Assembly (NCBI GenBank): GCA_964458335.1
Contig: CAYWIJ010000002.1
Span: 26,379-90,378 of the forward strand
Source of the DNA: an uncultured Candidatus Peribacteria bacterium
GTDB taxonomy: Bacteria > Patescibacteriota > Gracilibacteria > Absconditabacterales > Absconditicoccaceae
Direction of reading: 5' to 3'
DNA length: 64,000 nt
The position numbers and the translations under genes are program-made. Position 1 is the first letter of the stretch; each line of letters starts with the position of its first letter. Positions 8,742-41,711 of the stretch are shown one piece after another. Under the pieces are notes generated by a model. The model made no database searches. It saw nothing but the letters and a program-made list of their open reading frames with translations, and was not told the origin of the DNA.

Positions 8742-8817
8742 AGTTGAGAGTGTACAGTTTAAAGTGGAAAGTTGTTAGATATTGATTGGTTGTTGGGTAA
8801 AAAAAATTATTAATTTT

Positions 8818-8904
8818 AAAAAAAAACTATCACGGTGTACATTCTGCATTTGACGATGGATTGCGTCCTCCATTCTATGACTGATGTATGTGATAGTTTT
8901 TTTT
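8818..8904. terminator. long A-tract/stem/T-tract hairpin between convergent genes (bidirectional terminator or small RNA)
   Basis: aaaaaaaactatcac (8818-8833) is the exact reverse complement of gtgatagtttttttt (8890-8904). The inner pairs tacat/atgta and atgga/tccat extend the fold. Confidence 0.5.
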
Positions 8905-9020
8905 GGATATTTTGAGAATATAGCTACTACGACAAGGTTCCTCCTCTCGTATCTGGAGTTAGAGGTCACTTCGTTATACTGTGGCCGAAATGATATGCAC
9001 CACTGTAATTTTTCACTCCT

Positions 9021-9617: not shown

Positions 9618-9696
9618 TTAAGAATTTTGTTTAAGAAATAAATTACAATTTCATTGTACTTGTTTTTTTGAAAATTGCAAATTTTTTTGAAGATAA

Positions 9697-10497
9697 TTAA
9701 AGAGGATAGATAGTTTTTTGAGCGACAAAACAGATGTTTCTGGCACGGAAGATGTTGTGATGAAAGTCACCGTTTTGGCTACTATACGACCGTTGAACAA
9801 GTTGTAAGTTATGTTTTGTCAGGATTTTTTTTATTTCGTAATAGGTATGGATATGATATAGTCTTTTATGTGTTTTTCCTTGATCAGTAAATGGTATCAT
9901 CAGATTATTCCATTTTCGGTATCAGAAAGTAGTGATTGATTTTTTGAGAGATTGCAAGAGAGGTTTATAATGCTTATTTATCATCCACCATGACCATGAC
10001 CAATCAACAGAAATCCATTGTCCTTTATATCATAAGGTACGATATACTTGTTGGAGATACTGATTTCTTGTTTCTTGATCAGGAAGATGTTGATAAGAGG
10101 CCATTGTAATGATAATATCAATAGATTCTGATGGTTGTGTATCTAAATAATGAATCATATCATCTTCTCTTCGATGGTGATCTTTATTGGTAGGAGATTG
10201 CTGTTCTGCTATTGTTAATAATCAGGAGGAAATATCTACTCAAGTATACGAAGCAATGCAATCAGGATATTGAGACACAAGAGTACGATAGAGACGTCCA
10301 TCACCACATCCTAATTCTACAATATGAAGAGGTTTATTAAGGTTTTGAGATAATAGAGTAATATATTGTATAACATATTCTAATTCTGGTCGTTTTTTTT
10401 TACGTGTTGAGGAAAATTTATGAGAATGATTATTATAGCATTCGCGAAGATCTGATAGAGTTTTGAGTGATAAAGCTGTTGAATTCATAAGTATCAT
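9697..10497 (-). CDS. class I SAM-dependent methyltransferase
   Basis: VELGCGDGR motif I. Joins track ORFs 10240..10548 and 9697..9900 through TGA codons, and the frame was hand-scanned. The start could be ATG 10497 or 10488. Stop is TAA 9697-9699. Confidence 0.8.
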
Positions 10498-10585
10498 TAT
10501 AGTAATTTTTGTTGGTAATACAATATTTTTATAAAAAAACTCTTCCAAAGAATATGAAAGAGTTATGTGTTATAATATATTATTT

Positions 10586-11554
10586 CTATTGCTTTACAGT
10601 CGCTACTATAGGTTCTTTTTTTGATGATATTACCTCTGTTTTCTCTTTTGATTTTTCATTTTTTTTCTTTTCTTTTTCAATTTTTTTAGCTTGTTTTTTA
10701 GCTACCTTTTTAGCTTGTTTTCTTTCAATTTTTAATCTATATCTTTCTCTTTCTTCTTCACTTGTTCTTTGGGCAAGATCAGCTTTTGCTTTGAGATAGG
10801 CAGTTTCTTGGTCGGGAGAGAGTTGCGGCCATTTGAGATCCATATCTTCGAATACTTTGAGAAGTACTTTAGAGACTTGATAGAGTTTATACCAGTTCTG
10901 ATCGGATGGTATGATATGCCATTCTGGTCTATCACATTTCTCAAAAATACTTTCATATACTTTCATATATTCATCAAATTCATTACGAGTATCCCAATCT
11001 CAAATATTATGTTTCCAATATTTTGTTGGGTCTGTTAATCTTTCATTGAGTTTTTCTTTTTGTTTATCCTTTGAGATATGGAGATAGAATTTTACAATAA
11101 CAGTACCGCTTTCTTGTAAAAGTTCTTCAAATTCATTGATTTGATTATATCTTTGATGAACAATTTTTTTGTCAAATGTTTTTTGAACTGTAGGGACAAG
11201 AATATCTTCATAGTAAGAACGATTAAATATCCTCACTTCTCCAACTGCTGGTGTTTGTTTATGGATTCTCCAAAGAAAATCATGAGATGCTTCTTCTTTT
11301 GTGGGTACTCTAAAAGAAGTTGCTCTTGTTCCTAGTGGATTCATACCAGAGAAAATATGTTTTACAACACCATCTTTACCAGCAGCATCAAGTCCTTGTA
11401 ATACAATAAGTAATGATTTCTCACCTTCAGCGTACATCTTATATTGATAAGCTTGAATTTTTTGTATCATTTCTTGAGTTCTTTTAATGATTTTAGCTTT
11501 ATTGGAATTGTGAGGAGCAATTGTAGAAATGGTATGAAGTTGAATTTTTGACAT
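10586..11554 (-). CDS. ppk2: polyphosphate kinase 2 family (polyP:NMP/NDP phosphotransferase)
   Basis: LLIVLQGLDAAGKDG, FRVPTKEE, IFNRSYYEDIL and HNIGDWD (G = TGA) join track ORFs 11000..11602 and 10586..10966. Lys/Glu-rich tail. Stop is TAG 10586-10588. The start was taken at MSKIQL. Confidence 0.85.
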
Positions 11555-11604
11555 GTGTGTGTGTGGGTTAATAAGAATAAATGAGATATGTGAGAGTATC
11601 ACTA

Positions 11605-12552
11605 TTATGCAGGAGTAACTTCTTGCTTTTGTATGACTTTTTGTGTTACAGAAGTCTGAGAAGGAGTTTTTCTGATTATTTTTGGTTGTTTGATATCTGA
11701 AATAATGTTTTCTTTAATACTTCCAAGTTTAGTAGCAGTTTTAGTATGGACTTTATGTAAAGGTTTATTTGCTTTATCAATAAATCTCATAGTAGATTGA
11801 AATCTTTTTGTATCAGAAATATTACCTGTATAAAGCATACCGAGACAATATTTACTACATCACTTTGCTTCTTTGTATCCTAATTTTTCAATCATCTCAT
11901 GGCTTTTTGATTTTTTATGACTTGATTTTGTTTCAATAATAGCTACTGGACCAAACTTGAAATATTCAGCATTGTGTTTTGTAATATCTTGTGCTTGTAC
12001 ATCAAAATCAATAGTAATTCTTTCATCATTCTTTTTACTACAAAGTGTCACTCTTTTGTAGAGTGTACGAAGAGTAGGTTGAAGTTGTTCATGAGCATAA
12101 TCTAGATTTAAACTAGTGCAAATATTTTCATAAAATGCTGCACTTTGGTTAGTAAGAACTTTAGACTCAGTAACAGGAAGACCATATCTTGATTTACGAA
12201 TTACATCTCCCTCTCTTTGTTTACATTCAAAGAATGCAATATTACTATCTACATATTCTCTCGATCTTACTTTCATTCTATTTTTTTCTCCTCTTTCGTG
12301 TTGATGGAAGAAAAGAAAATCTTTGGTATCCATATAGATATTATCATAGGTAAACAGTGAATTTCCTTTAATAGCAAGAACATAATAATCTTTATGAAGT
12401 TGATGCATAACTTTACCAAGATCTTCAAGAGAGATGATATATTTTTTTTCGATTCTTTCCATGAGAGACATGGTTGCATTGAGTTCTTCAAGAGAAATAG
12501 TATCGAAATCTTTTAAAGCATCAAAAAGTTTTGTATTTGTTTGGAGAGTCAT
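11605..12552 (-). CDS. VTC-domain (polyphosphate polymerase-like) protein
   Basis: Track ORFs 11860..12621 and 11605..11838 are in the same frame, separated only by TGA (..GYKEAKGCSKYCLGMLYTG..). VTC-like features are KKYIISL.., FFECKQREGD and ETKSS. The start was taken at MTLQTN (12552). Confidence 0.8.
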
Positions 12553-12769
12553 TGTGTAATATAAAATGAATAATATAAAACGAGTAACACAATAATAGTA
12601 TATGATATAGGAAAAAAACAAAAAAAATCTATCATATTAATAGATAATAAGAGATGATATTTGTAAAATATAATAAAATATTATTGACAAAATATATTTT
12701 ATATTCACAATAGACTTATTGAGTAGTAAGAAATATCAAAAATACTATTTTTGAATATATATGCATATA

Positions 12770-14912: not shown

Positions 14913-16226
14913 ATGAAAAAAATATGATCAGTAGTGATCTATGGAAAAGGGAAAGCAATGGAATCAGTATGTAAATTATTAAATCATCTAGGCGTATCTT
15001 ATATCCAAATGGATGATGCAGATGCCAATGAAGAGCTCATCAAAAAATCAAAAATTATCATCGCCACTCCAGGTATCAAACCAAGTCATCGACTCTATAC
15101 GACTTACAAAACTAAGATTATGTCAGAACTCTCTTTTGTTGGTAAGCTCATCAATGATGGGTATTTCTCACGATGGCATAACATACAGATTATATGAATT
15201 ACAGGAACAAATGGTAAAAGTACTACAACTTGGGTACTCTATCAAGCTTGTCTCTTATTACAAAAAGAATATAATCCTGACCAGAATCATAGTATCTATA
15301 TTGGTGGGAATTGGGATATACCCTTGAGTGGAATCTTATATACTATTATTTCAGAAGGAAAAACAGAGGAGAAGAGTACTATTATTTTAGAATGCTCTTC
15401 ATTTATGTTATGGAATTTACAAAATTTCAAATTTTCCTTAGGAATTTTACTGAATATTGCACCAGATCATATTGATCGACATGGATCGATGAAGGACTAT
15501 CTACAATCTAAACTCAATATATTGGCATACTCTGAGACTGCTATTACAACTCCTGAAATAAAGAATGATGTTTTAAAAGATCAGATGCGATGAATTAGTC
15601 TGCTTCATAGATTGCGACCATTTCGACGACAGACGAATAGACCCAAAAATTGGTTGAGTTATGATGCATTATGAGATTTTTATCATCCCTTATTCTTAGG
15701 ACAACATAATGCATATAATTTTGGTGCAGTAGATAGGGTATTACAACAACTTTATCCTGGATATGATCTAAAAGTTTTACAACAAATAGAGCCCGTAGCA
15801 CATCGCTTACAGATTATACCTTTAGCGAATGGAATGAATATGATAGACGATAGTGTCTCAAGTAGTGCACATGCTTTAGCAGCTGCGATTGATGCTATGG
15901 ATCCTCCTATTACATTGATTGCTGGTGGCTACGATAATGGAGAAAATTATGATGCACTTCTTCAAAAATTATCTGATAAAGTAAGAGTGGGGATTTTCTA
16001 TGGTCAAACTCGTGTACATCTCTATCCATTGTGAAAACAAGTAATTACTGATGTGTATATGGTAGAAACTCTCGAAGAAGCGATGAATCTTGCTCTCGAA
16101 GAATCAAAAAAACATACTATTCAGACTATATTATATAGCCCAGGAGCAAAAAGTTTTGATCAGTTTACGAATGTGTATGATAGGATAGCGACATTTGAGA
16201 AGCTGGTTAGTGGATTGGTTGCTTAG
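14913..16226 (+). CDS. murD: UDP-N-acetylmuramoylalanine--D-glutamate ligase
   Basis: MKKIGSVVIYGKGKA.., ITGTNGKSTT (first G = TGA 15195-15197), LNIAPDHIDRHGS and LGQHNAYN. Four track fragments are joined in one hand-scanned frame. Stop is TAG 16224-16226. Confidence 0.9.
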
Positions 16227-16299
16227 CTCTTAGGTATTGATTTTTTTCTTCTGTGCTTCGAAAGTAAAGATGTAATAAAAGGTAACTGATATAACAATG

Positions 16300-16337
16300 A
16301 AAAATCTCGCAATGACAATCATTGTGGCAGATTTTTT
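16300..16337 (+). terminator. rho-independent terminator after murD
   Basis: aaaaatctcgcaatgacaatcattgtggcagatttttt: an imperfect stem followed by a T6 run. Shares a 19-mer with the hairpin after the HIT gene. Confidence 0.6.
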
Positions 16338-16422
16338 CTATATGCATTTTTATAAGTCATGATCTAGTATATTCAAACAATAAATGCTTGTCAACTAGTC
16401 TAGAGCCATTACATATCTCCCA

Positions 16423-17679
16423 TTAGGCACAAATATTGATACCATTTACCCAAATATTTATTCCATATCATTTCGCTGCTATGATGGAACAATTACTTTG
16501 AGATAAACTCATAATAGGATTATTATAAGCCTGAAGTGTATTGATATAAAAATAATTTGAAAGATCTGGAAGAGTACTAATGCTGTTGTTGTTGAGATAT
16601 ATAAGTTGTAATGCAGGTACTTGTGATAGTGAAGGGAAAGTTGAGATATTATTGTATTGTAAGAGGAGTTGTGTAAGAGCGGGGAGATTATATAATGTCA
16701 CTGAAGGAATGGCATTATGTTCTAGTAATACATATTCTAAACTTGGTAAGTTCGAGAGATTGATAGGAGTTGCAAGATTGATATTATTTCTTACTTGTAA
16801 TTGTTTCAATCTTCTTAAATTAGAAAGAGGAGGGAGATTTGATATGGAAGTCCCATCAATTACAATTCCTTCTAATGCGACAAGTTTGTTGATGGCACTT
16901 GGAATAAGGATAACATCAGATTTATTGGTAATATTAAATCGTGACATATTTTGACATAGATTTTGCTTACTAATAGAGGATTGGTTAATAAGAGCTCATA
17001 ATACAGGTACTTCTTCGTCAGTAAGATGAGCGATACATCGAGCTACAGGATCATCAGTACCGTTGTAGATGTCAATCGGTGCAGTAGGCTCTTCGATTTT
17101 ATAAGTAAGTCCTCTTCATATGACATAAAAATCTCCTTGTTCAGAATCTATTGCTCATTTGCAGTTTGTTGTATTTCCTCTTTTGGATTCTCTCATGGAC
17201 GTCATTGCATATACTTTACCTTTTTGATCTGTATAGTAAGCAAAAAAATTCCCTTCTGATTTACATTCTCCTGATGAGTTAGTGGTGAGTCCATATCAGG
17301 TATCTTTTGGAATATCACTCATATAAGGAAGTATAAAAGAGGAAATTTTGGCAATATTATTGAGAGATGGTATTCCTGGTATAGATTCTGTTGTACTAGC
17401 AAGAAAAGTATCACGATATGACCAAAAAGGAGCTACAGGATATACTCCACTATGTTCTATGGAATAAATTTCAAGAGCAGTAGATATCTGATTCATATTG
17501 CTGATACGTACACTATCACGAGCACGAGCTTGCATTCCTTGAATCTGAGGTACAAGAGAAATGATAAGAAGACCGATAATGATGATAACAATGATCAATT
17601 CTACTAGTGTAAATGCCTTGTTGTGAGAGCGAGAAAAGAATTGTTTTGATCTCGGTGTTATATGATAATAAGAAAACAT
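16423..17679 (-). CDS. type IV pilin-like protein fused to C-terminal leucine-rich repeats
   Basis: Track ORFs 17296..17679 (..SHNKA|FTLVELIIVIIIIGLLIISLV prepilin signature) and 16468..16947 (LRR units such as LSNLPSLEYVLLEHNAI, LYNLPALTQLLLQYNNI, LSQVPALQLIYLNNNSI) are one frame interrupted only by TGA. 418 aa. Stop is TAA 16423-16425. Confidence 0.8.
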
Positions 17680-18536: not shown

Positions 18537-18683
18537 CTTTACAATAAATATTAAATAATTAAAATAATAAATGTCATTATATAGTGAAGTCACAATGATA
18601 TAATTTTTGGTCTTGTATGAAAAAGAATATATAATTCGTTATGAACTCAGAATATTGAATATACTTTGATTGATAATTATATA

Positions 18684-20015
18684 ATGACTCCCCAGGTAGA
18701 ACAATTTAAAGAACAACTTAATAACTCCATTATCAACGCTGATGTTGTGAAGATTTTTGATAATCTTTTAACAATTGCTGTGGAAATAGGAGCTTCTGAT
18801 GTGCATATTGAAGCATTTGAAGATTATTGTAGGATGAGATTAAGGATAGATGGAGAATTAGAAGAACTTGTTCAATACCCTAAATCAATTCATGAAAGTA
18901 TTATCTCAAAATTCAAAATTGAATCTGGACAAATGAGACCTGACGAAAGAAGATTACCTCAAGATGCTAGAGTATCTACTATTACTTTGACCAATAAAGA
19001 AATTGATCTGCGTGCCTCTACACTTCCTACGGTTTGGTGAGAGAAGTTAGTAATGCGTATTGTAGATAAATCAAAGAAAACACCAAAACTTGATGATCTT
19101 GGTATTGAATGATCAAATCGTGATATTATTCTTCGTCAGTTGGAGAGTCCAAATGGTATTATTTTGACTACATGACCTACGGGATCAGGAAAAACATCCA
19201 CACTGTATGCTGCTTTGAATTATGTAAATAGTATTGATGTAAATATTACTACTTTTGAAGATCCAGTAGAAAATAAAATGCACTGATTGAATCAGTCACA
19301 AGTAAGGTCTGATATTGGATTTACGTTTGGATCAGGTTTGAGAGCGGCACTGAGACAAGATCCTGATATTATCATGGTGTGAGAAATCCGTGATGGAGAA
19401 ACATTAGAAATGTCGATGGAAGCTGCCATGACAGGACACTTAGTATTTTCTACTATCCATACGAATTCATCAGCTGAAACTATTACGAGAGTATTCAATC
19501 TCTGAGCTTTACCTTATATGGTAGCTGGTACATTTAATGTAGTCATGGCACAGAGATTGGTCAGAAGAGTGTGTTCTACGTGTAAAAAAGAAACTACTAT
19601 TACAAATTCAAAACATTGGAAAGAATCTATAGATGCTTTTCGTGGTTTAGATACCAATGTCCTCAAAGCAGAGATACTTTCGAGAGGTATTGATCCGCTA
19701 CAATGGAAAAATTATGTTACAGAATGAAAAGTAATACAAGGAAGCTGATTAGCAGAAGATGGAGTTAATAAATGTCCTACCTGTAATGGATCTGGTTATA
19801 AATGAAGAGTCTGAGTGTATGAAATGATGGAATATACGGATGAAATTAGAAATTTTCTTATTGGAGGTAAAACTGCTTATGAAATAGAAAACTATGCATT
19901 GAGTAGGGGGATGATCAATCTTGAAAGAGATGGTATTCTCAAAATTATCAAATGATATACAAGTTTAGATGAAATTTATAAGGTTGTAAAACATAAATCC
20001 TCTAGTTCTTCATAG
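18684..20015 (+). CDS. pilB: type IV pilus/T2SS assembly ATPase (PilB/GspE family, short form)
   Basis: [17 protein letters not shown], Walker A TGPTGSGKT (G = TGA 19173-19175), [19 protein letters not shown], and tetracysteine [16 protein letters not shown]. 443 aa. The frame was hand-scanned. Stop is TAG 20013-20015. Confidence 0.9.
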
Positions 20016-20050
20016 TTTCTTCTTGCTTTAATTATTTATATAGTATTATA

Positions 20051-21160
20051 ATGGCATCTTCAAATCAACTCAATAAAAATAATATGCTACAATGGTGGGA
20101 TAAGTTTTTCGCATCATTTAATAAACCACCGATGCCAGTAAAGACAAATTTTTTCCGTCTCTTGGCAGTAGGGCAAAAAGTGGGACTCTGATTGAGAGAA
20201 AGTTTGATCAGTATTGAAAGTTCTGAACACAATAAGGTGATGAAGGCTATTATTTTGGATATGATTGAACATGTAAGTCAGGGAGATCCACTTTCAAAAG
20301 CTATGGAACAACATTCCTATTTCTTTAGTTCAACAGAAATTGAATTGATCAAAGCAGCTCAAGGAATGGGTAATCTTCCAGATACTTTAGAAGGTATTGC
20401 ATTAGAATTGGAAAATTTTGCTACTATTGTTAAAAAAATTAAAGGGGCTCTGACCTATCCTATTACTCTTCTTACGTTTACAGTGTTGGCTGTTGTGATA
20501 TTGATGATTAAGGTAATCCCAACGATTGTAAGTCTCTTTCCTTCTAAAGAAGCATTGCCACAGATTACGAGAATTGTACTAGATATATCTGATTTTATGA
20601 TAGCACGATGGTGGGTATTGTTGATATCTATTGTTTCTATCATATCTGGATATAGATTGTTATATAAATATTTCCTTCCTTTCAAAATTTTGATTGATGG
20701 TATTATATTGAAGATACCTGTTGTAGGAAGTGCATTTAAGACTTTTTATATGTATAGGTTTGCTAAATTGCTTTGAGATTTTATGTTTGCAGGAGTAGAT
20801 CAAATTAGTGCCATGACTCAAATTGCAAGAATATTTGATAATTTCTTCTATAAAAAGAAAGCAGAGGATATTAAAGCTGATTTGAATGCATGATTTACGT
20901 TTTCAGATACTATTGAGGGATCTGGATTATTTGATCCTATTCTGATCCAAATTATCGTCGTAGGAGAAAAAACGGGTAATCTCTGAGAAATCCTTCAAAC
21001 GATGTCTTGATTCTATAAAGAACAATTGATGACAAAAATTGGAAATGTAATGGCATTTATTGAACCGATCTTACTTGGATTTATGGCAACAATTATCTGA
21101 TCTATCGTAGCATCGATTTTCCTTCCGATGACGGATATGGTGAACCAAATTTCATGATAA
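20051..21160 (+). CDS. pilC: type IV pilus platform protein (PilC/GspF family)
   Basis: Two GspF-type repeats (FFRLLAVGQKVGLGLRESL.., FAGVDQISAMTQIAR..GEKTGNLGEIL) and three TM regions. Stop is TAA 21158-21160. Confidence 0.9.
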
Positions 21161-30187: not shown

Positions 30188-31228
30188 TTATTGACAAGCA
30201 GATTCGGTGATGGTGATTGTATTGTTATTATGATCAATCCTTGCTGTGACTCATAGTGGTAGTACCATCATAGGATCAGTATGACCGAAGTCCATATTAG
30301 TGATGATAGAGAGATGGGTTAGTCATAGTTCTTCATTAATAATTTTAAGTAATGTATCATCATAATTAATTTGTGATTGAGTAGTATAATTATATTGAGA
30401 TCTTCAAAGTAATATACCTTGTATTTTTTGGAGAATACCTTGAGATCATAGATTTCTAATTATTCTTTCAAATTGATTGATACTCATTTGCTCTTCTGAT
30501 GTTTCAATGAAGAGAATTTTATCGTTCCATTCATCAAGAGTAGGTCGAATACTTGTTCCTATCATAAAAGGGAAAACATCAAGACATCATCAGAGCAGTT
30601 TACCTTGTACGATACCTTCTCCTTGTAGTCGTCTTCGTGGAGTGTTTGGCATGAGATTTCTTTTGATATTTTGATTATCAGGATTTCACCAATCATAAAG
30701 TTCGTTTGTCCATCAGGATGTGTTTGGAGTAAGGAATCCAATGGGATCAGGACTAAAAAGAGATTTTTGTACATACTCAGCCATATACGGAAATATTCCT
30801 GTATTTTCACCAAATCAAGCCATGATACTTGGTCCATAAAATGATACGAGACCGGCTTTTTGACAGATAAAATGAGTGATAGTACTATCAGAATATCAGA
30901 GGAAAATTTTAGGATTATTGCGAATAATATCAAAATCGATATAGGGGAGTATTCTAATAGATTCTTCTCATCAGATGGTTGAGATGATAGCTTTGATATC
31001 TGGATTAGCAAAAGCATCCATCAAATCTTGAGCTCTTAGCTCTGGATGTTCATATACTCGTTGAGCAGATTGTAGAGTATGATTCATCTCTATCACGGTG
31101 ACTCAAAATTCTTGTTCGAGTTGTTGTTTACCGATAGCATATCTTTCTGGGCATGCTCAAGGTCATCACCATGAGAGAGATACGGTAGCTATGGTATCTC
31201 AGGGTTTGAGATGGAGAGGGTAGAGCAT
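30188..31228 (-). CDS. S66-family serine peptidase (LD-carboxypeptidase / MccF-like), copy 1
   Basis: LKPGDTIATVSLSWGG.., GYSDSTITH (nucleophile Ser), IETSEE and NMDFGHTDP (His). 346 aa. The frame was fully hand-scanned with no TAA/TAG. Composition is similar to the flanking genome. Confidence 0.85.
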
Positions 31229-31440
31229 GATAAAGCTCTTGAAAACTATAAAATATAATATAATATATATAATATATGGGAAACATTATTGTTTTTCAAT
31301 GAATAAATGCTTAGTCTAATTATAATTTAAATAAAACTATCAAATAAGTAAAGTAAGATGTTTTATATGTTTTCTTACTTGAAAAATGTTCTTTAAAACT
31401 TATACTATTCAATATATTTATTTATGATGATTTGATTGTA

Positions 31441-32433
31441 ATGATTATACCTAATAAATTAAAGAAAGGAGATGAGATAAGAATTATTGCTCCCTCTCGT
31501 AGTTGAAGTATATTTCAGGATGAATTTTTAAATTTAGCAAAAGATAAGTTAGAATTATTATGATATAAAGTTACTTTTTCAAAAAACATTTTTAATAAAG
31601 ATATTTTATGATCTTCATCAATAGAAGATAGAGTATCAGATTTGCATGATGCATTTTGAGATTCTTGTGTTAAAGCAATTATTACTATTATTGGTTGATT
31701 TAATATAAATACTATTTTGAATCATTTAGATTATAATCTTATAAAAAATAATCCCAAGATACTTTGTGGATATTCAGATATTACAGCATTACAAAATGCA
31801 CTATGGAAGAAGATATGATTAGTGACTTATTCTTGACCACATTTTTCAACATGGGCCATGAAAAAATGATTTGACTATATACAGGAATACTTTTTAAATA
31901 TTGTAACACAAGATTATCCTGTATCAATTTATCCCTCTCATGAATACAGTGAAGATAAATGGCATAAAGATCAAGATAGTAGAATATTTCTAGCGAATTG
32001 ATGATATAAAATATTAAAATATTGAATATCTACATGAAAAATTATTTGAGGTAATTTATGTACATTGAATCTATTACAATGAACAGAATATATGCCAGAT
32101 CTAAAGAATTGTATAGTATTTATTGAAGATGATAATATTGCGTGATCAGCAGGAGTGTTTGAATTTGAAAGAAATTTTCAGTCGCTTATGCAACAAAAAG
32201 ATGCTAAATATATTAAGTGATTGTTAATAGGAAGATTTCAAAAGGATGTGGATATGACAGAAGAGAAACTAAAGTATATTGTTTTATCAAAGACAGATTG
32301 ATTAGATATTCCTATTATATCAAATCTTGATTTTTGACATACATATCCTATGATTACATTTCCTATATGAGGTGTTATTTCTATAGAGGCTATTAATGAA
32401 AATGATATATCTTTAACTATAGAAACTCATTAA
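31441..32433 (+). CDS. S66-family serine peptidase (LD-carboxypeptidase / MccF-like), copy 2
   Basis: LKKGDEIRIIAPS, GYSDITAL, FIEDD and LDFGHTYP. 330 aa with about 20 in-frame TGA. Every codon was checked to TAA 32431-32433. Confidence 0.85.
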
Positions 32434-32459
32434 TAATTTAAGATTACTATACTATAATT

Positions 32460-32822
32460 ATGCAGGGCTTGTTAATAATAAAACCAGATGCTTTTAGAGA
32501 AAAAATTGATAAAGAAATACTAGATATATTATCTAATAGATGAATTGTTATAGTAAATGCTTTATATAAAGAAATATTATATGAAGATTTAAGACAATTA
32601 TATTTAATTGATATCTATCCTATGAGTATATCAGCTCATGATATTTTATTAGAAATATATTCATGATGTTCTACAATTTTAATTGTTGAATGAAATGATA
32701 TATTTAATAAATTGATGAAGGTTAAAAAAGAAATTAGGGAAAAATATAAAAAACAGTATTGATATATACATACCAGTGATAATAAACTTGAATTTGAAAG
32801 AGAAGTGAAAATTTTTATATAA
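32460..32822 (+). CDS. nucleoside-diphosphate-kinase-like small protein
   Basis: LLIIKPDAF at the N-terminus and YGYIHTSDN, which resembles the NDK NxxHGSDS catalytic-His motif. 120 aa. TAA 32820-32822 overlaps the convergent gene end. Confidence 0.6.
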
Positions 32823-34455
32823 ATAAATCTTTTATAGTAGTAATATTATCTAATAAAAGACTTTTAATGGAGTCTCTCTCATAGATTGTTCATATAAGGC
32901 TATTATCTATAGAATTATATTCTATGATTAAATGTTTTTTGTATCATTTTTTTATCATATATTTTAATATTTTTCATTTTTTATATATATTGTATGGATA
33001 TTCTTCTATGATAATATTCTCTTTAAATCTTATATAGTCTATGTATTCTCTTACTTGTTGATATTTGACATCAATAGGAATATTAATGGATATTCCAACT
33101 TTAGGTGATAATTCTAATATGTTATTTCATGTTTTTGTTTCTATAAGTTGTATGAGTCTTTCAAGACTGAATCCAATTCATGTTCATTGTATTAGAGGTC
33201 ATCATAAATTTTTTGTCATAAAATCATAAGAACCACCATCAGCTGTTTTCTTAGAAGACCCTGCAAAAATTTGATAACACAAACCATTATAAAATCAATT
33301 TCAATCTAATTTTCATAAACAAAATCTTATGTTTTTTATTCAATTATATTGCATTTTTTGAATAAAACTATTGATTTCATTTACTCTTTTTAAAAGAAAA
33401 GAGAATTTTTTGCTTAACTCTGATAACAGTTGAATACTTTGATTGTGATTGTTTCAACAAGATAGTAATCATAAAATTATCATGACCTGTTTCTCATTTA
33501 TTCAATAATTTTGAAGAAGTGTTTTTATATTATTGTGTGTTTTTTCTCTAATAATTTGATATACAATATTATCAATATCTATTTGCGATGGTTTATTGTT
33601 AAGAAAATAATAAAGTAAGTCTTTAATTATATCTAAATGGCTAATTTCTATATAGTAATCTTTTAATCAATAAATACTTAGAAACTTTAGAAAAATTGTT
33701 ATAATTTCTGTCGCTGCAAAGTCGTTATCTAATCAATATGTTTCTATTGCCAGCATCTCAAATTCTCTTTTTCTATTTTTCCCTGAACGGTAGCGATATA
33801 CGTTTCCAGAGAAGAATAGTTTAATCGGTAAATTGTCTCTAAAATTTGGATTATTGAGAATTGCGCGACTAATAGGTCAATTAATATCTGGTCTTAATAT
33901 AAGTTCACGATTAGACTTATCAAAAAATGTATATGACTTATCTCAGGGATAATAAGGTGCAGTTAATTTAAAAATATCAGAATATTCAAATATAGGAGTT
34001 TCTATTTTTTGAAATCAATGAGATCTCAGAAGCTTAAAGAAAGAATGTTTTAAATGTTCTGCTTTTTGTAAATATTCATCATTTAGATCACTTGTTCCAC
34101 GAGGAGTTTGTATTTTATTTTTATCTCTTATAACTTTAAATGATTGATAAAATTTATTTTTTTCATCCCAAATATATTGATTGATTTCTTGTATGATCTT
34201 ATTATCTGATAATTCAATACTATTAATAATATTAGATTTATAAGTATTTATAATATTAGTAATTTGTACACAAAATAAATTTCTATCACTTCAATTTACA
34301 TCTAATGTGTCTATTAGTTTATAAATATTTATACAAGCTTCATCTAATATAGATTGTATATTTTTTTTATGTTCTTGTAAAATAAGGAATTGTTTTGAAA
34401 AATTTATGAAAGATTCATTAATAAATAATTTTAAATGATCTTTATTATTTATCAT
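32815..34455 (-). CDS. divergent HisRS-like class II aaRS paralogue with N-terminal extension
   Basis: 546 aa, all codons hand-scanned. PRGTSDL, IETPIFE, LILRPDINGPISR, KREFEMLAIETYG and GIGFSLERL match the HisRS/HisZ fold. Catalytic signatures are altered: GNGFYNGL replaces RGLDYYTG, and GGSYDF replaces GGRYD. The N-terminal extension is about 115 aa. Confidence 0.75.
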
Positions 34456-35764
34456 TATGACTTAATGTATTAAATAAATTTTCCATAGTAACTTGTATTT
34501 GATCTCAATTTTTAAGATCTTTTAGGTACATATCAGTTCCATTATTTAATATAAGAAAATTATTTATACCTCTTTTTTCTGAAAATTTAAATTGATTTCA
34601 TATTTTCTTATTAAAATTAGGTATTATTTCACACGATATAAAATTATTTCTTAAGATATTTGCAATATTATTTGCTGTATTTCTTTGACTTTCACTATAT
34701 CATCAAATCATTAATTGTGTATTGAATAAGTTTTCTGTATTAATTTGTTGTAAATGATTTAATAATCAAAATAATCTTGTAAGTCATAAAGAGAATCAAA
34801 CACCTGGTAGTCTTTTTCAACTTATCATATTTGTTAAATTATCATATCTACCTCATCAACATATACTTATATTTCATAGTGTTTTTAATTTTCATTCAAA
34901 TATAGTTCCTGTATAATATCATAATCAACGCACCATATTAATTTTAAATTTGATGCAATGTGAGATATCGTTACTAACATTAGACATAATTTCTTGAATT
35001 TCGTTTATTGCATTATTAATTGTGATGTCGCCTTGATATATCTCAAATATTTTAGATAAAGATTGAGAATCGAAATCTATATCTCAATTATTAATAAATA
35101 AGTCAATTACTGAAGTTGGTATGTTAATTCTTTCTAATTCTTGTCTACATTGTTCACTTCATATTTTATCTAGTTTGTCTACTATATTAAGAAATAATTG
35201 CTTACTAGAACCATCTATATGATAAAAATTACATATTCAATCTATTAATTTGCGATTATTTATATATATATAAAATTGATCTGGGATTATTGTGTTTAGC
35301 GCTTTAACTCACATTTCTAATACTTCAGCATCATAATGTAATGGTAATGTTTCAATACCTATTACGTCAATATCGGTTTGTAAAAATTCTCTATATCTTC
35401 ACATTTGAGGTCTTTCTCATCTTCGACATTTTTGTATTTGATAGCGTTTAAATGGAAATGTTAAATTATGAAAATTATCAACTGTATATCTTGCAAATGG
35501 TACAGTTAAATCAAAATGTAAACCTAATTTAGGTTTTTTATGTTCATTTTCTTCAGAAGAAATATCATTGTACCTTCCAACACCATAAATTTCTTTATCG
35601 TCAGATCATTTAGTTAATAGAGTATCTAATGATTCTACTGAAGCTGTTTCAATAGGTATATATCAATAGAGCTTATATATGTTTTTTACTTTATCTATCC
35701 AAGATTCCATCAATAATTGTTCTTTAGGTAGTAACTCGGGAAATCAATTAATTGGAGAATTCAT
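34445..35764 (-). CDS. hisS: histidine--tRNA ligase (complete)
   Basis: [44 protein letters not shown] (motif 2), [20 protein letters not shown] and GVGFSLGLTRL, plus an anticodon-binding-like C-terminal domain. 439 aa with about 25 in-frame TGA. The frame was hand-scanned. Confidence 0.85.
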
Positions 35765-35834
35765 GATGTGAATAAAATGATATAAATTAACTATATTAAT
35801 AATTATATTATATATATATGTCAATAGAATTTAT

Positions 35835-36653
35835 CTATCAAATAATCTGTGTGTCTATATTATTCTGATAAAAAGGAATATATTCTTTAAAGAATTCTAT
35901 TAAAAATTTATTAATTTTTTTCTTATTATTAATAGGGTCATATTCCCAATCTAATACTTGTCTCATTTGTACTTTGAATTGAGGATATAGAGAAATAAAT
36001 TCTTTGTAACATATTTTAACGTCTGGTGTATAAATAGTTTTATGAAGCATAACTATTCATAAAGCAGATCTTAATATAGTTCTCATAATCCATCTACATA
36101 AAAATTCATTCTTTTTTCTTTCTCATAGGTAGTAAAATACTTTATTATCATTATATAAATAGGATCTTAATTCTTGTAGATAAGCTGGTAAATTTTGATA
36201 TAAATATAAAAATAGTTCTTTTCATACTTTATAATTTTGCAGACCGCAACATATATCCTGTCAATATAATAGTGCAGATTGAGCTAATAAATTTATTCTT
36301 AAAAGATTATATTGAATTGAATATAATACTTCATCTAATGATACTATTCATAAGTCATAAAAAGATATGTTGGGATCTATTAATGATAATTCTCTAGTTG
36401 TTTTTTTTATCCAACATACATCTTCATAAGAAACACTATTATTTATGATACATACAAAATCAATGTCTGAAAATCAATATTTTGCTGTTCATACGCTTAC
36501 ACTACCTCTGAGATATATTGAAATTATTCTATTTTTAAAATATTTTTTCATCTGAATTATTGTAAAATCAATAATCTGATGATATTCTTTTGCTATTTTA
36601 TTGATATTTCAAGTGTTTTGAATATATCAATGATAGTCAATTTGTATACTCAT
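35835..36653 (-). CDS. AadA/ANT-like nucleotidyltransferase (Pol-beta superfamily)
   Basis: IYLRGSVSVGTAKYGFSDIDFVCI matches the GS-x(9-10)-SD[IL]D motif of adenylyltransferases. The helical C-terminal domain resembles the AadA C-terminal region. 272 aa. Extends track ORF 35838..36050 upstream through TGAs. Confidence 0.8.
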
Positions 36654-36672
36654 GATAATTATATGATGAAAA

Positions 36673-37932
36673 TTAAATATTTTCTTTATCAAGATTAATG
36701 TGATTATATGGTCATTCTAGTTCTTGTGGTATATGATGATCAGCAATTAGTATAGTACAATGAGATTTATTATGATATTGATTGATGATATTAATAATAT
36801 TGTGTTTTGATACATCATCTAATCATGTAAATGGTTCATCTATTATCAAGAGTTCAGGCTCTTTATTTATGACTGATAGTGTTACTAATAGCTGCTTTTG
36901 TCCTCTACTTAAGAAAAAAGGATGCAAGTCTTTATATTTTAGTAATCAAATAAGCTCTAATTGCTTAATAATATCATCTGTTACTCATATAGTATCTTTT
37001 CAAAATTGAATTTCTCTCAGTACACTTCTTTCAAAAAGTTGTTTTTCAGGTTCTTGTAATATAAATCAATAGCTTTTAAATTTTTTTTTTATATGTCCTG
37101 ATATTGGTTTATGTTTTCATCTTATTAACTGAAGTATTGTAGATTTTCATATTCAATTACCTCCTGTGATTATATTGATTGATCATTTTTTTATATTAAA
37201 GTTGATATTTTGAAGTATTGGTATTTTATTAGAATAATGAAAATTTATATTAGATATTTCAATAATATTACCTCATTTTAGATCACTTTTGTCACTTGAT
37301 TGTAAGACAGATCTTTCTATTATTTTTAAAGATTTATTTGTTTTTAGATTAATATATTGATTAAATATTTCTAATAATTCTTTTTCATGAGTAGCAATAA
37401 ATACTATTTTATTATGTAATGATGTGGTTATATAATTCTTAAGAATATTGATATTATAAAAATCTAAGTTTGCAGTAGGTTCATCTAATAAAAGGATAGG
37501 ATTATCAGAAGATAATATAGAAATTAGGCTAATGATTTTTCTTTCACCAGAAGACAAATCTTTGATTAAAGAATTTTTTTTATTTTTTATTTTAAATAAT
37601 TTAAGGAGGTAATTAGCTGTTTCTTTTTCTTTATTATTAAGATAAAAAAATATTTCATGATAAACTGTATTAAAAAGAAACTGATTTTCAGGATCTTGAA
37701 AACTCATTTTAATGATATTATCTTCTGTAGTATTATGAGATATAATATAATCTCATTGAAAAATATTATCTATTTTTAATCAAGAAATTAGTCTAAGGAA
37801 TGTTGATTTCCCAGATCAAGTATCTCATAATATCCCAATGATATCTCATTTTTGAAATTCTTGAATAATGTCTTGGAAGAGAATTTCTCAAGTGTCTTTA
37901 TTGAATAAACTCTTTATATTAATAGTAAACAT
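36673..37932 (-). CDS. fused tandem ABC ATPase (ECF EcfA-EcfA' type)
   Basis: Two nucleotide-binding domains. The first has GDTGSGKST / LSSGERK / LLLDEPT. The second has GGNGIGKST / LSRGQKQ / LIIDEPF. 419 aa. Extends track ORF 37273..37707. Confidence 0.85.
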
Positions 37933-38595
37933 TTATTTTTTAATATTTAGATGAAAACTATCATTTAATGTTTGTATCCTTTTAATATGAGAAAGAAAAA
38001 TATTTCCTCAAATATAGTAAATTTTTTTTATTTTCTTTCATATAGAGTTGCTTTTATATTGACGTGATTCCAAAGCAGTAAGAGTAGTATCAACATCTCT
38101 CATAATATAGTTAAATGTATTTAGTGCTATAGTAATAGTAAGAATAATATTTTTTGGTAATTTTATATATATAAGAAAATTCATTAATTCATCTTCAGAT
38201 ATTATAGATATATATAATATTCATGAGAATAATATACTTAATGTTTTTAATATTACTATTATTACTTTATGAATTGTATTAGAAGAAATAAAGCTTCATC
38301 GAGGTCGTTCTAATAAAATTCTTCCTTCTACTTGACTAAATAATATTCGAAATAAGGAACATGTAATAATGAAAATTCATATTCGTCTAAAATATTGTCC
38401 ATATATTCTAAAAAATCAAATGAAGTATAATATAATAAATGCTAATAAGAGTGTGACAAGATAAAAATATATATTATTATAAAATATTAATAATAATCAA
38501 ACAAAATGAAAGAAGAATACTTTAATAATAAATGGTATTGTAAATCGTATAGAGTTATCCTTTAAAGATACAGTGAAAGTACTTTTATAAGCCAT
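37933..38595 (-). CDS. ECF transporter transmembrane (T, CbiQ/EcfT-like) component
   Basis: 220 aa with 5-6 hydrophobic segments and a C-terminal coupling-helix-like TALESRQY motif. Its stop abuts the ATPase start (TAAATG, same frame). Confidence 0.7.
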
Positions 38596-39186
38596 TTATT
38601 TATTATGTATAAATGGTAATTTATTTACAACAGGAGATAGAAATTTCAATAAAGGTATGCCAATGATTATTCATACAATTAATCATCATCAAATCCATCA
38701 ATAAATTGCAGGTTTTATAGCTTCTGATGGTATTAGTCCAGCTTTATTTAGAATAATTATAGTTCGAATTGAAGAAATAATATTAGCCATTATAACTAAT
38801 GTGATATATCCAATATAATATTTTATCTTACTAAATGATGAATTTAAATTCATGTATTTAAATCATAGAAGAATTATAACTCCTCAGAAAGTATTTCATA
38901 AAGCTCCTAGTGGAACGAAAGCATGAAATCAAGTAAATAGCGCCGCTATAATTAATCCTAAATATATTGCAAGAATTCATTTCCATTTAAACCATATTGC
39001 GAATGCATAGAAAAATGCAGATCATATATATAGAATTGAAATATTGAATATACCAAGTGGGAATCCAATTACTCAAATAATATCCAATGCAGCGACTATT
39101 CAAGATAATATTCCGATAATAATAAAGTTGTATATATAGAGATTGTTCTTTTCTGTAGATGATGCAATGATTTTATTCATGATCAT
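38596..39186 (-). CDS. ECF substrate-capture (S)-like membrane protein
   Basis: About 195 aa with about six hydrophobic segments. Sits first in the operon, and its stop abuts the T-component start (TAAATG). The start is ATG 39186 or 39180. Substrate unknown. Confidence 0.6.
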
Positions 39187-39213
39187 GATATAATAAAATA
39201 TATAAAATAGTGT

Positions 39214-39242
39214 ATTATATAAAATGTATATAAAGATGTCAA
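39214..39242 (-). promoter_or_regulatory. consensus sigma70-type promoter of the ECF/aaRS operon
   Basis: The minus strand reads TTGACA (plus 39237-39242), 17 nt, then TATAAT (plus 39214-39219). This lies about 25 nt upstream of the first ATG and immediately downstream of the leuS stop. Confidence 0.6.
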
Positions 39243-39245
39243 TAC

Positions 39246-41711
39246 TTAATTATTAATTATATTCATAATCTTATCGGCTACAAAAATCACTTTCTTCGTC
39301 GTACCAGTAAGATATTTTGAGATAGTTTCATCAGCATGGACGAGAGCGAGAAGTTCTTGTTCTGAGATACCAGCTGGGACGGCAAGAGTTCCTCTCATTT
39401 TACCGTTGATTTGAATAGGGAAATTGATGGCTTTCAGTGTAATTTTACTTTCATCTGCTACAGGCCAGGATGAGAAGGCGATATCATCCGTGTGTCCTGT
39501 TTTCTCCCATAAGAATTGTGCAGTAGCAGGAGCGAAAGGTGCGAGAAGTTGTGCAATATATCACAGAGATTCTGCATCAACTGCTTGGTTGTCATAGATG
39601 GTATTGATCGCGATCATAATCTTACTGATAGCAGTATTGAATTTATATTGTTCTACATCTTCAGAGACTTTCTGGATCGTCTCATGAATAGTAGCGATGA
39701 CGTCTTCGTTGACTGACCCGAATCGTGTCTGATCCGTGATTTTGTACACTCTATCTAAAAATTTCTTTGTACCATTGAGAGCTCCGTCATTTCGGATTTT
39801 GTCCAATTCAATCGGTCCCATAAACATGAGATAGGTTCTCACGGCATCAGTTCCATAGGTATCAATAATCTCGAGAGGATCAACCCCGTTATTATATCTC
39901 TTTCCCATTTTACGACCATCAGCTCCGAAGACCATCCCTTGATGAATAAGTTTCGGAAATGGCTCTGGAGTATCTACATATCACTGATCATAGAGAAATT
40001 TGTGGATGAAACGAGAGTAGAGGAGATGGCCAACCGTATGTTCTTTCCCTCCAGTATACAAATCTACGGGAAGTACTTTTTTAGCAAGTTCTTTGCGAAT
40101 GAGTTCTTTGTCATTGTGGGCATCAGGAAATCTGAGAAAGTAGAACGAACTATCCATAAAAGTATCGAGTGTGTCACATTCTCTGAGGTATGGACCTCCC
40201 CCCTGTCCCCCCTCCTGTCAGAGAGGGGTATAATATTTGAATGTAGGATGATCTTCGAGTGGAGATTTTCCCTTAGGTTTGAAGTCAGTCACATCGAGAG
40301 GTAAAATAACAGGAAGTTCTGACTCTGGTATGAGTTGTGGATTGTTGGCTTCATCATAATATACTGGAATTGGGCTTCCTCGATATCTTTGGCGAGAGAC
40401 CGACCAATCGCGGAGACGATAAGTAATCTTTTTGCGACCTACTCAGAGTTCTTCAAGATAAGTAGTAATACTTTTTTGTCCATCTTGGATAGATAATCCA
40501 TCAAATTTATCCGAATTTACTAGAGTATGTAATTCATTCATTGCAGGATTTCATTTTGATGTTAATACTGTTGGTAATGAATCTCGTTTGTATATATTTA
40601 TATCAAAATCATCAGTCAACCATCATATTTTTTCTCAATCTGGTATAATATGAACTCAAATATTAATAACTCTTTTAGGAACTATTATACCTTCTTTATT
40701 TTGATTTGATTTCCAAAATAAGAAATCTCTCTCGTCGTGAGCTGGTACCATCATCACTGCTCCTGAGCCATAATCCATCAGTACATAGTCTGCAAACCAT
40801 ACGGGTATTGAATCTCCTGTGAGAGGATGGATGGCATACAATCCAGAAAATACTCCCGTCTTGTCAGCTACGTCTTGTTGTCTCTGGACTGCCGTCTTTG
40901 CTAAGGCTGTATTTCTATATGATTGTACTTGTGCTTTTTTATCTTCCGTAAGGAGATCGTCAATCAATGTATTTTCTGGAGCGAGAACAACAGCTGTGAC
41001 TCCATACAAAGTATCTGGACGAGTTGTGAATACGGTCAGAAGAATATCACTATTGGTAATGTTGAAATCTATTTCAGCTCATTCCGATCTTCCAATCCAA
41101 TTTTTTTGCATAATTTTGGTCTCTTCTGGTCGATCTAGAGCATCCAAATCTTCAATAAGTCTATCAGCATAATCTGTGATTTTTATAAACCATTGCATAT
41201 GTTTTTTTTGTACGATTTCGGCTTTGCATCTCTCACATTTCCCATCGACAACCTGATCATTAGCAAGAACCGTCTGATCGACAGGACATCGATTTACAAA
41301 TTTCTCATCACGATAGACGAGTCCTGCTTCCATGAGTTTGCTGAAAATCCATTGCGTCCACTTATAATAATCTGGCATACTGGTATCGATAATTCTATCA
41401 TAATCGAAAGAAATATCGAGTGCTTTCACCTGATCCAGAAACATCGTTTTGTTGATATCCGTGACTTCACGAGCTCCTTTGTGTTGTTGGAGAGCATAGT
41501 TTTCGGTTGGTAATCCAAAAGCATCAAATCCAAAGGGATTGAATACCGTATATCCTTGCATTCTCTTCACTCTTGCTACGACATCATTGATCGTGAAGAC
41601 GGAAGCGTGGCCAGCATGCAGACCTACACCTGAAGGATAGGGGAACATGGTCAAGGCATAGAAAATCTTGTCAGCTGGAGCATCGATTAAATTCGGAGAA
41701 AAGTTAGTCAT
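39246..41711 (-). CDS. leuS: leucine--tRNA ligase
   Basis: [14 protein letters not shown] (HIGH region), [27 protein letters not shown] and [13 protein letters not shown] (KMSKS-like). 821 aa. Three track ORFs and the gaps between them were hand-scanned. Stop is TAA 39246-39248. Confidence 0.95.

Follow-up and report, generated by a model that had tools for sequence, protein, structure and literature searches.

A genuine hisS and a remodelled, N-terminally extended HisRS paralogue lie in tandem in a Patescibacteria genome that reads UGA as glycine

The stretch of DNA considered here, referred to below as the window, comprises 64,000 nucleotides from an uncultured Candidatus Peribacteria bacterium (assembly GCA_964458335.1, contig CAYWIJ010000002.1, positions 26,379 to 90,378), and contains two adjoining genes akin to histidyl-tRNA synthetase (HisRS): an ordinary hisS and a paralogue with an altered active site, the latter being our main subject. 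When the standard bacterial code (table 11) is applied, the region from 31 to 35.8 kb is without any long open reading frame (ORF), and two HisRS-like frames are found on the minus strand, at 34445-35764 (hisS) and 32815-34455 (the paralogue), which are broken solely by TGA codons (23 and 21 in frame, respectively) and each of which closes with one terminal TAA. These TGAs sit at glycines that are invariant in HisRS, as in R-G-ERPQM-G-RYREF, V-R-G-L-G-YY and C-GG-GRYD. As they occupy universally conserved HisRS glycines, the window is written in code 25, in which UGA encodes glycine and which is the code of Gracilibacteria and Absconditabacteria. Under code 25 both ORFs are intact, encoding proteins of 439 aa (hisS) and 546 aa (the paralogue), and both products match PF13393 far past chance (E = 4e-31 and 3e-36). 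An initial annotation of this DNA had proposed tandem HisRS-like genes at this position, which is confirmed, though only on the minus strand and under code 25; the 11-nt overlap between the ATG of the paralogue and the hisS stop is present, as is every motif that was quoted in support.

Public deposits of the same two proteins (P0001 and P0166) read UGA as tryptophan, such that 21-23 conserved glycines per protein appear as Trp. One of these records, P0001, was considered as a second homologue at 96% identity and was rejected, being the same protein translated with UGA = Trp. The wrong-code public record of the paralogue, with Trp for Gly at 21 positions, conceals conserved glycines from annotation pipelines.

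The first gene (34445-35764, minus strand; 439 aa in code 25) is identified as a genuine HisRS by its model score and its catalytic residues. It passes the NCBI hisS equivalog TIGR00442 (293.4 bits, cut-off 286.75) and, when aligned to E. coli HisRS, retains R113, E115, R121, F125, Q127, R259, Y263/Y264, GGRYD and R311, with Asp at the positions of E83 and E131, as in other archaeal/eukaryote-type HisRS. The match of its anticodon-binding domain to PF03129 is weak (E = 0.0045, under the cut-off); the anticodon-reading motif KDLKNGDQ is kept, and GE.E is replaced by NNGTD. The closest relatives of the protein, 43-49% identical, make up a small group; next, with 36-42% identity, come ordinary HisRS from Lentisphaerae, Actinomycetes and Alphaproteobacteria. 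With the HisRS of a related locus, L014, described below, the protein shares 51% identity. It is divergent from the other HisRS linked to the paralogue in members of the Candidate Phyla Radiation (CPR), with which identity is 28-31%. By these characters the ORF is an ordinary, complete HisRS, in agreement with the initial annotation, which had called one of the two genes canonical: the hisS equivalog cut-off is passed and all catalytic residues are kept.

The second gene fails the hisS model (158.4 bits, against 286.75 for TIGR00442), also fails the HisZ model TIGR00443 (145.6 bits against 271.65), and lies far under the cut-offs of all NF0089xx models. In an AlphaFold2 (AF2) model with a predicted local distance difference test score (pLDDT) of 85 and a predicted template-modelling score (pTM) of 0.76, built from the database version of the protein carrying 21 Trp at Gly positions, it is divided into three parts. 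Residues 1-115 (34111-34455, minus strand) constitute a lineage-specific N-terminal extension, for which AF2 predicts four helices (residues 4-24, 30-50, 55-79 and 85-105; pLDDT 60-73). These are followed by a catalytic core of the class II HisRS type whose pocket has been rewired (residues 116-445; 33121-34110, minus strand; PF13393, E = 3e-36), which includes the HisRS helical insertion and is modelled with pLDDT above 90, and finally by an alpha/beta C-terminal domain (residues 446-546 plus the stop codon; 32815-33120, minus strand), with the topology of an anticodon-binding domain according to AF2 and Foldseek. Foldseek places the core and C-terminal domain on full-length HisRS structures (1wu7, 4yrn and 1kmm; TM 0.77-0.80 over about 440 columns), and also superposes the paralogue on the HisZ entry 3od1 of B. 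halodurans, while the N-terminal helices are covered by no PDB match. The paralogue is therefore modelled as a whole HisRS fold, with catalytic core, helical insertion and C-terminal alpha/beta domain.

Comparison with the orthologous protein of locus L001 (551 aa) gives 48-51% identity overall, distributed unevenly across the domains: the core is 61% identical, the extension 24% and the C-terminal domain 32%, and the remodelled motifs are nearly identical in the two proteins. This difference between core and flanks, together with the near-identity of the altered motifs, indicates purifying selection on the new pocket constellation rather than decay. The extension is kept in position in L001. 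Consequently, the helical N-terminal extension of about 115 aa noticed in the initial annotation can be considered real, given its conserved position and the four predicted helices. This N-extended form is rare, being found only in the window, in L001 and in a fragment (P0033). The paralogue of L014, which is 43% identical to the core of the window paralogue, is without it; since both this closer recoded relative and the remaining family are without the extension, it is a derived feature.

The nature of the remodelling becomes apparent when pocket residues are compared in E. coli HisRS numbering. Across the paralogue family the class II ATP clamp is invariant (motif-2 Arg113, adenine-stacking Phe125 and motif-3 Arg311), the motif-1 proline is kept, and in the imidazole pocket Tyr264 and Tyr288 are retained, as mostly is Glu131. 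Other positions carry replacements that are themselves conserved within the family, namely Thr85 to Asn, Glu115 to Arg, Gln127 to Met (Met234 in the window paralogue, Met or Ile in relatives) and Tyr263 to Phe. At the position of the catalytic Arg259, most paralogues have His and two have Arg, with Asp (Asp384) in the window and Glu in L001, and a new invariant Asp (Asp406 in the window paralogue) directly precedes the GG of GGRYD. At Thr85, Glu115, Gln127 and Arg259 HisRS has residues for catalysis and for binding the alpha-carboxylate and amine, and there the family has a conserved polar set of its own. The window and L001 proteins share GGSYD in place of GGRYD, with S287 in the window. The clade can be recognised by the signature D83-N85-R113-R115-F125-M127-E131-(H/D/E/R)259-F263-Y264, Asp before GG, and R311, which the window paralogue possesses in its D259 form. 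In a HisZ-like control sequence Arg113, Arg259 and Arg311 are all gone; given that the paralogue keeps both Arg113 and Arg311, it is unlike HisZ exactly at the ATP site. The description of the second gene as a catalytically remodelled HisRS paralogue in the initial annotation is thus borne out by the alignment to E. coli HisRS, in which catalytic residues are replaced. Its motif reading was sound as to the remodelling and out of register as to the pairing, in that RGLDYYTG corresponds to DGNGFYNG, so that the catalytic Arg has become Asp.

Contacts with tRNA were judged against the HisRS-tRNA-His structure of Thermus thermophilus (Tt). In that enzyme Glu114 is essential for aminoacylation via its contacts with A76, Arg115 and Arg122 clamp the phosphate of G-1, Gln117, Lys118 and Arg120 read C70-C74, and the anticodon is read by Glu386-Glu388, Lys397, Lys399 and Gln404 (PMC4357726). 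The acid equivalent to Tt Glu114 and the equivalent of Arg120 are kept in all genuine HisRS that we aligned, including that of the window. In the paralogue family the Glu114 position is instead occupied by Arg (or Thr/Trp), the Arg120 position is variable, and the motif-2 loop is shorter, by 3-4 residues in most members and by one residue in the window/L001 pair. Neither of the anticodon-reading motifs, GE.E and K[DN][LM]..G.Q, was detected anywhere in the family in the alignment with Tt HisRS. Tt Glu64 was dropped as a diagnostic residue, as genuine archaeal-type HisRS are also without it. Moreover, L014 encodes a tRNA-His of canonical form, whose gene includes G-1 and places it opposite C73. 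Given the loss of acceptor-end and anticodon determinants and the canonical tRNA-His of the related locus, charging of canonical tRNA-His by the paralogue appears very unlikely. A role in adding G-1 or otherwise in tRNA-His maturation was rejected, since the L014 tRNA-His encodes G-1:C73 and the paralogue is without tRNA-reading residues.

When 1.84 billion cluster representatives were searched exhaustively with HMMER, a discrete group of 16 proteins (419-445 aa) emerged, scoring 167-272 bits and separated by a gap from ordinary HisRS, which reach at most 122 bits. All 16 match the core and C-terminal domain, and the extension is absent from them. When species-representative genomes were scanned with the family profile, only metagenome-assembled genomes of Patescibacteria/CPR were matched, belonging to Saccharibacteria, Moraniibacteriota, Gracilibacteria, Nomurabacteria and unclassified Patescibacteria. 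An earlier genome scan with a two-sequence profile returned no matches, and a metagenome scan with a generic automatic pattern returned almost only ordinary HisRS, with L017 the sole family member.

In a neighbour-joining tree of the catalytic domain (200 bootstrap replicates; HisZ-like set defined by motif, not by annotation), the paralogue family is monophyletic in 100% of bootstraps, and the window paralogue and L001 group together at 100% inside it. The nearest neighbours of the family are bacterial-type HisRS in about 95% of bootstraps and HisZ-like sequences in about 3%. Clustering within HisZ, which the initial annotation had named, together with a hisG and a his operon elsewhere, as an outcome that would overturn its reading, is hence not seen. 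The HisRS genes that adjoin family members are not monophyletic, and fall into two different HisRS clades. On the basis of this tree the family is an old, separate lineage rather than a recent copy of the neighbouring hisS, and the window paralogue is placed as an N-extended, derived member of a monophyletic, HisRS-derived family widespread in Patescibacteria/CPR. A full-text literature search found no description of a CPR HisRS paralogue family, and the reviews of duplications and paralogues of aminoacyl-tRNA synthetases (aaRS) that we consulted give HisZ as the only HisRS paralogue.

In the window, the two HisRS-like genes stand at the end of a row of six. Upstream, on the minus strand, is a sigma-70-type promoter, TTGACA-17-TATAAT, matching the consensus at 12 of 12 positions (39214-39242), located between the stop of a LeuRS gene (39246) and the start of the first gene of the row (39186). 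The perfect match is notable for this very AT-rich region, where most promoter-like matches are chance. The promoter is followed by a membrane protein of 196 aa (38596-39186) without a Pfam match, assigned to the S-component position of an energy-coupling factor (ECF) transporter by its location beside EcfT and EcfA-A'; a T component of the CbiQ family (37933-38595; PF02361, E = 1.4e-08); a fused double ABC ATPase of the EcfA-A' type (36673-37932; PF00005 in two stretches, E = 9.6e-40); and a Pol-beta-type nucleotidyltransferase of 285 aa with a helical C-terminal part (35835-36692; PF01909, E = 7e-06), all on the minus strand, and then by HisRS and the paralogue. The nucleotidyltransferase gives weak ANT-like matches and has no close solved structure; a 33%-identical homologue comes after the paralogue in the Saccharibacteria locus L007. 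The genes are tightly packed or overlapping, and no terminator-like hairpin or site was found between the promoter and the end of the paralogue. The paralogue thus appears to be co-transcribed with hisS, in a six-gene operon that also encodes an ECF-type importer and the nucleotidyltransferase.

On the opposite strand, a short NDK-like ORF of 120 aa (32460-32822, plus strand; PF00334, E = 3.5e-08) converges on the paralogue and overlaps its 3' end by 8 nt; its catalytic His is kept and its Kpn-loop segment is deleted. The same convergent, 3'-overlapping arrangement occurs in L001 (1816-2097, minus strand). Beyond it lie two S66 peptidases, S66b (31432-32433, plus strand; PF02016 and PF17676) and S66a (30188-31228, minus strand), which were classified by bit scores to MccF, MccF-like and LdcA structures. 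S66b scores 360 bits to the B. anthracis 'MccF-like' protein BA_5613, 126-140 to MccF and 45-70 to LdcA, and S66a scores 310 bits to Ba3275, 133-139 to MccF and 25-80 to LdcA, and is 42% identical to the S66 peptidase adjoining the paralogue in L002. By these scores both enzymes are assigned to the MccF-like branch and not to LdcA.

The block from 31400 to 39250 is distinct in composition: GC content is 20-26% and UGA accounts for 59-83% of Gly codons, against 35-39% GC and 17-26% UGA in the flanking genes for LeuRS, GyrA and a P-type ATPase. From its composition this block is a compositional island, and it can work only in a host that reads UGA as Gly. It could originate by transfer from another UGA = Gly lineage (L014-like, 26% GC) or through local bias. 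Neither hisG (PF01634) nor other his genes were found among the window ORFs scanned, so the remark of the initial annotation that no hisG is nearby holds at that scope, and the window contains no tRNA genes. A T-box or other RNA leader was considered and rejected, as Rfam gave no match in 30-42 kb, and so was an anti-phage defence system, PADLOC returning no matches save weak ones to the nucleotidyltransferase domain.

Across related loci, hisS is linked to the paralogue in 11 of 13 informative cases. It adjoins the paralogue directly in eight (the window, L001, the P0017 contig, L004, L005, L007, L008 and L009), with a spacing of 0-80 nt in L004, L005, L007-L009 and the P0017 contig; in a further three (L003/L006, L010 and L014) it belongs to the cluster but lies 3-6 kb off; L002 and L011 have no nearby copy. 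Importer genes stand beside the paralogue in nearly all loci, being of ECF type in the window rather than ABC. Most loci have a common cluster composed of an ABC permease, an ATPase and a membrane-anchored binding protein of the NMT1 type, and most also include two cytoplasmic enzymes of the alkaline-phosphatase superfamily and a protein of 446-474 aa without a Pfam match, which we call unk446. Variable extras include NIF3, two S-adenosylmethionine (SAM) methyltransferases, a radical-SAM protein and a Mom-like protein. The window itself contains neither the sulfatase-like enzymes nor unk446 nor the NMT1 binding protein. S66 peptidases recur near the paralogue in L002, L009, L010 and L011.

The phosphatase-superfamily pair (L008, 3646-4779 and 7103-8515; orthologues in L003-L005, L009-L011 and L014) is annotated as 'sulfatase', yet both members have Thr, not Cys or Ser, at the nucleophile position (as judged by eye), possess no signal peptide, and match a phosphodiesterase family in Pfam as well. 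It is consequently doubtful that they are true sulfatases, and a cytoplasmic phospho(di)esterase or phosphotransferase is the probable identity of each. The unk446 protein is encoded beside unextended paralogues (L003, 5262-6602; L008, 5676-7100; L010, 5524-6867; L011, 7211-8554; L014, 11321-12700). The protein, for which AF2 gives a confident model (pLDDT 86), carries an invariant loop, Y[VI].DE..SRGR, and has a motif like the phosphoribosyl pyrophosphate (PRPP) loop. No structural neighbours were found below E = 0.1 by Foldseek against the PDB, the weak local matches being mostly type I phosphoribosyltransferases (PRTs), and hhalign gave at most 5% for a PRT identity against E. coli Gpt, Apt, Upp and HisG. 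The slot by the second phosphatase-superfamily gene is variable, being occupied by unk446, a Mom-like protein (PF25680), a radical-SAM protein or two SAM methyltransferases (L004, 7427-8773; the P0017 contig, JGI 3300075153; L005, 5415-6857; L009, 11209-12737), and resembles the tailoring position of a biosynthetic or modification cluster.

There is a recurrent histidine theme around the paralogues, consisting of an ammonia-lyase and tRNA-His in L014 and of his genes in the P0017 contig and L016. In L014 (GCA_964435215.1) a histidine-type aromatic ammonia-lyase (15515-17089) comes directly after the paralogue, and the cluster contains an S51 peptidase and, 3.8 kb downstream, the canonical tRNA-His (19156-19231; G-1, C73, CCA). 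The P0017 contig has long HisG and HisI 4 kb away. In L016 (56% GC; 2243-12597) the his operon is complete (long HisG, D, C, B, H, AF and IE) and precedes HisRS, after which comes a very divergent HisRS-like gene overlapping it by 4 nt. This last gene has features like those of the paralogues (FRYR, ADGGSY, a motif-2 loop that is short, and His in place of Arg259), and could represent a remote offshoot of the family beyond typical CPR. The premise of the initial annotation that CPR bacteria lack histidine biosynthesis is accordingly not a safe one, as some relatives have his operons or a histidine-type ammonia-lyase alongside.

Taken together, these observations narrow the role of the paralogue, for which the initial annotation had offered a regulator, an immunity decoy or a ligase with a new substrate, to a non-tRNA function involving ATP and an imidazole ligand. 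Our favoured but tentative reading is that it is a neo-functionalised adenylate-forming enzyme, which would act on histidine or a close imidazole analogue and would not charge tRNA-His; we favour it because the pocket has a new conserved polar set, and not the scattered substitutions of HisZ-like sequences. Such an enzyme would still bind ATP along with either histidine or a close imidazole analogue brought in by the importer of the same operon, and its reaction would bypass tRNA-His charging, the acceptor most likely being a small molecule or a protein. With the new Asp, the His, Asp or Glu that has taken the place of Arg259 could rebuild the metal-assisted chemistry of other class II enzymes, and the four-helix extension may be a lineage-specific docking module. 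A more specific proposal, which we regard as possible but doubtful, is that the family as a whole is an active class II enzyme with a His/Asp-based and possibly metal-dependent site, activating histidine or an imported imidazole compound for a non-tRNA acceptor. If this were true, there would be a new CPR-wide pathway with an importer, two alkaline-phosphatase-superfamily enzymes and the fold-orphan unk446; in the window lineage this pathway would be centred anew on a nucleotidyltransferase and MccF-like hydrolases, with a docking domain added.

Several points weigh against an adenylate-forming enzyme. The retained ATP- and histidine-binding residues would fit an allosteric sensor equally well, no candidate acceptor or carrier protein is encoded near the paralogue, and the position of Arg259 is not uniform in the family (His, Arg, Asp or Glu). 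The C-terminal domain is retained, although AsnA, EpmA and the amino acid:carrier-protein ligases lost theirs. Additionally, little context is shared, since the phosphatase-superfamily enzymes, unk446 and the NMT1-type importer that accompany most family members have been lost in the window lineage.

An alternative of this kind, to which we give only a little less weight than to the enzyme, is that the paralogue is a non-catalytic ATP/histidine sensor or accessory subunit, forming a heterodimer with HisRS or docking to the importer or another partner, and tuning histidine uptake or charging. Tight and often overlapping hisS-paralogue pairs (11 nt here, 0-80 nt elsewhere) are typical of complex subunits, and the linkage persists though the linked HisRS genes belong to two clades. 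Moreover, motif 1 (an element of the dimer interface) and the C-terminal domain are retained, the tRNA-reading residues and catalytic Arg are lost, the N-terminal helical module could act as a docking domain, and the tuning of HisG by HisZ offers a precedent. However, the linked HisRS genes keep all catalytic residues and so need no partner, L011 and L002 have the paralogue without a nearby hisS, and the pocket is not decayed but has a new conserved polar set and an intact ATP clamp, unlike HisZ-like sequences; we also know of no heterodimeric HisRS. Identity with HisZ itself, the short-form ATP phosphoribosyltransferase subunit, is the least credible of the readings considered, in spite of the 'LRPD' and the loss of the catalytic Arg that are common to HisZ and the paralogue, and of the presence of 3od1 among the top sequence and fold matches. 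TIGR00443 is failed (146 against 272 bits), R113 and R311 are kept where HisZ-like sequences have lost them, a sister relation of the family to HisZ-like sequences appears in only about 3% of bootstraps, the window ORFs scanned include no hisG, and the HisG found near relatives is the long, HisZ-independent form (it carries HisG_C). A canonical HisZ is thus largely refuted by model score, intact ATP-site residues, the tree and the failure to see a short hisG. A looser version, in which the paralogue would assist another phosphoribosyltransferase, for instance unk446, in the manner of HisZ, shares this very low standing: it could draw on the PRPP-loop-like motif of unk446 and on the type I PRTs that make up most of its weak Foldseek matches, but unk446 is absent from the window and its assignment as a PRT is not significant (hhalign at most 5%, Foldseek E > 0.1).

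It is likewise highly improbable that the paralogue is a second functional HisRS, for example one specific to stress or to a variant tRNA-His, which uses an alternative catalytic strategy. The full HisRS architecture including the C-terminal domain, the retention of the ATP clamp and imidazole pocket, and a motif-2 loop that in the window/L001 pair is nearly full length and has Lys/Arg would all suit such an enzyme, yet the hisS model gives 158 against 287 bits, Asp stands in place of the catalytic Arg259 and Met in place of Q127, Arg has supplanted the acid essential to positioning A76 (Tt Glu114), the motifs for reading the anticodon are missing, and the only tRNA-His in a related locus is canonical (G-1:C73). 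Less remote, but still improbable, is a connection with toxins of the aminoacyl-adenylate type, whereby the paralogue, with the MccF-like S66 peptidases, nucleotidyltransferase and transporter, would bind, sequester or process histidyl-adenylate mimics, or would make such a compound, the divergent HisRS then being the resistant target copy. It is a familiar pattern for antibiotic gene clusters to carry a resistant copy of an aaRS (IleRS2/mupirocin). Consistent with this idea, the two S66 enzymes of the window are of the MccF-like branch rather than LdcA, S66 genes recur near the paralogue in four other loci (L002, L009, L010 and L011), the operon forms a low-GC, UGA-rich compositional island with S66b and the NDK-like ORF, and the window HisRS is divergent (28-31% identity to other CPR-linked HisRS). 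Nevertheless, the family and its linkage to hisS are spread over very small CPR genomes, in which a second, housekeeping hisS is presumably unlikely; to our knowledge no natural product targets HisRS in such a way; PADLOC and defence matches do not go beyond weak nucleotidyltransferase-domain ones; substrates of S66 enzymes of the BA_5613/Ba3275 type are not established; and neither a peptide-precursor gene nor an MccB-like adenylyltransferase is present.

Comparison with known systems places the paralogue between categories. It resembles HisRS (HisS, class IIa; TIGR00442, PF13393 and PF03129) in fold, domain order, motifs 1-3, ATP arginines, stacking Phe and imidazole Glu/Tyr, but fails the equivalog score, has replacements at Arg259, Gln127, Thr85 and Glu115, lacks anticodon-reading motifs, has a shorter motif-2 loop in most family members and, in the window, carries the four-helix domain. 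With HisZ (TIGR00443) it has in common a HisRS origin, the loss of the catalytic Arg, the Asp in 'LRPD' and a link with histidine metabolism, and HisZ and HisRS show comparable sequence and fold similarity to it; unlike HisZ, it keeps the ATP-clamp residues Arg113 and Arg311, forms a separate clade, has no short HisG partner, and is linked to hisS and an importer. The HisRS-like domain of GCN2 is a eukaryotic pseudo-synthetase that senses uncharged tRNA, as part of a kinase, and binds tRNA. Like it, the paralogue is a HisRS-derived module reused outside synthesis and equipped with extra domains, whereas it is bacterial and stand-alone, keeps the ATP clamp and is without tRNA-reading residues. 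The principle that we propose, an intact ATP site with an altered substrate/acceptor site and loss of tRNA recognition, is that of AsnA, EpmA/PoxA and the SerRS-like amino acid:carrier-protein ligases; these are derived from AspRS, LysRS, SerRS or GlyRS and have shed the anticodon-binding domain, whereas the paralogue is derived from HisRS and keeps its C-terminal domain.

A second, independent HisRS-derived family beside HisZ would extend the short list of aaRS paralogues with non-translational roles, and the family would provide a handle on a conserved, uncharacterised CPR cluster, in which an importer is coupled with two phosphatase-superfamily enzymes and a fold-orphan protein, in organisms reliant on scavenging. 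The role of the paralogue is directly testable, since both proteins are soluble single-gene products with obvious assays.

Elsewhere in the window, a very large ORF (95-5695, plus strand) encodes 1866 aa under code 25. On the minus strand, genes for a PPK2 polyphosphate kinase (PF03976, E = 7.5e-59) and a VTC-domain protein (PF09359, E = 3.4e-29) are adjacent at 10586-12621, and look like a small polyphosphate module. Two further minus-strand ORFs, 7312-8088 and 16423-17679, have an N-terminal methylation motif of the type IV pilin kind (PF07963 in the first, FTLVELIIV-type in the second), and together with the ORFs at 18666-21160 these pilin-like proteins may represent a pilus locus.

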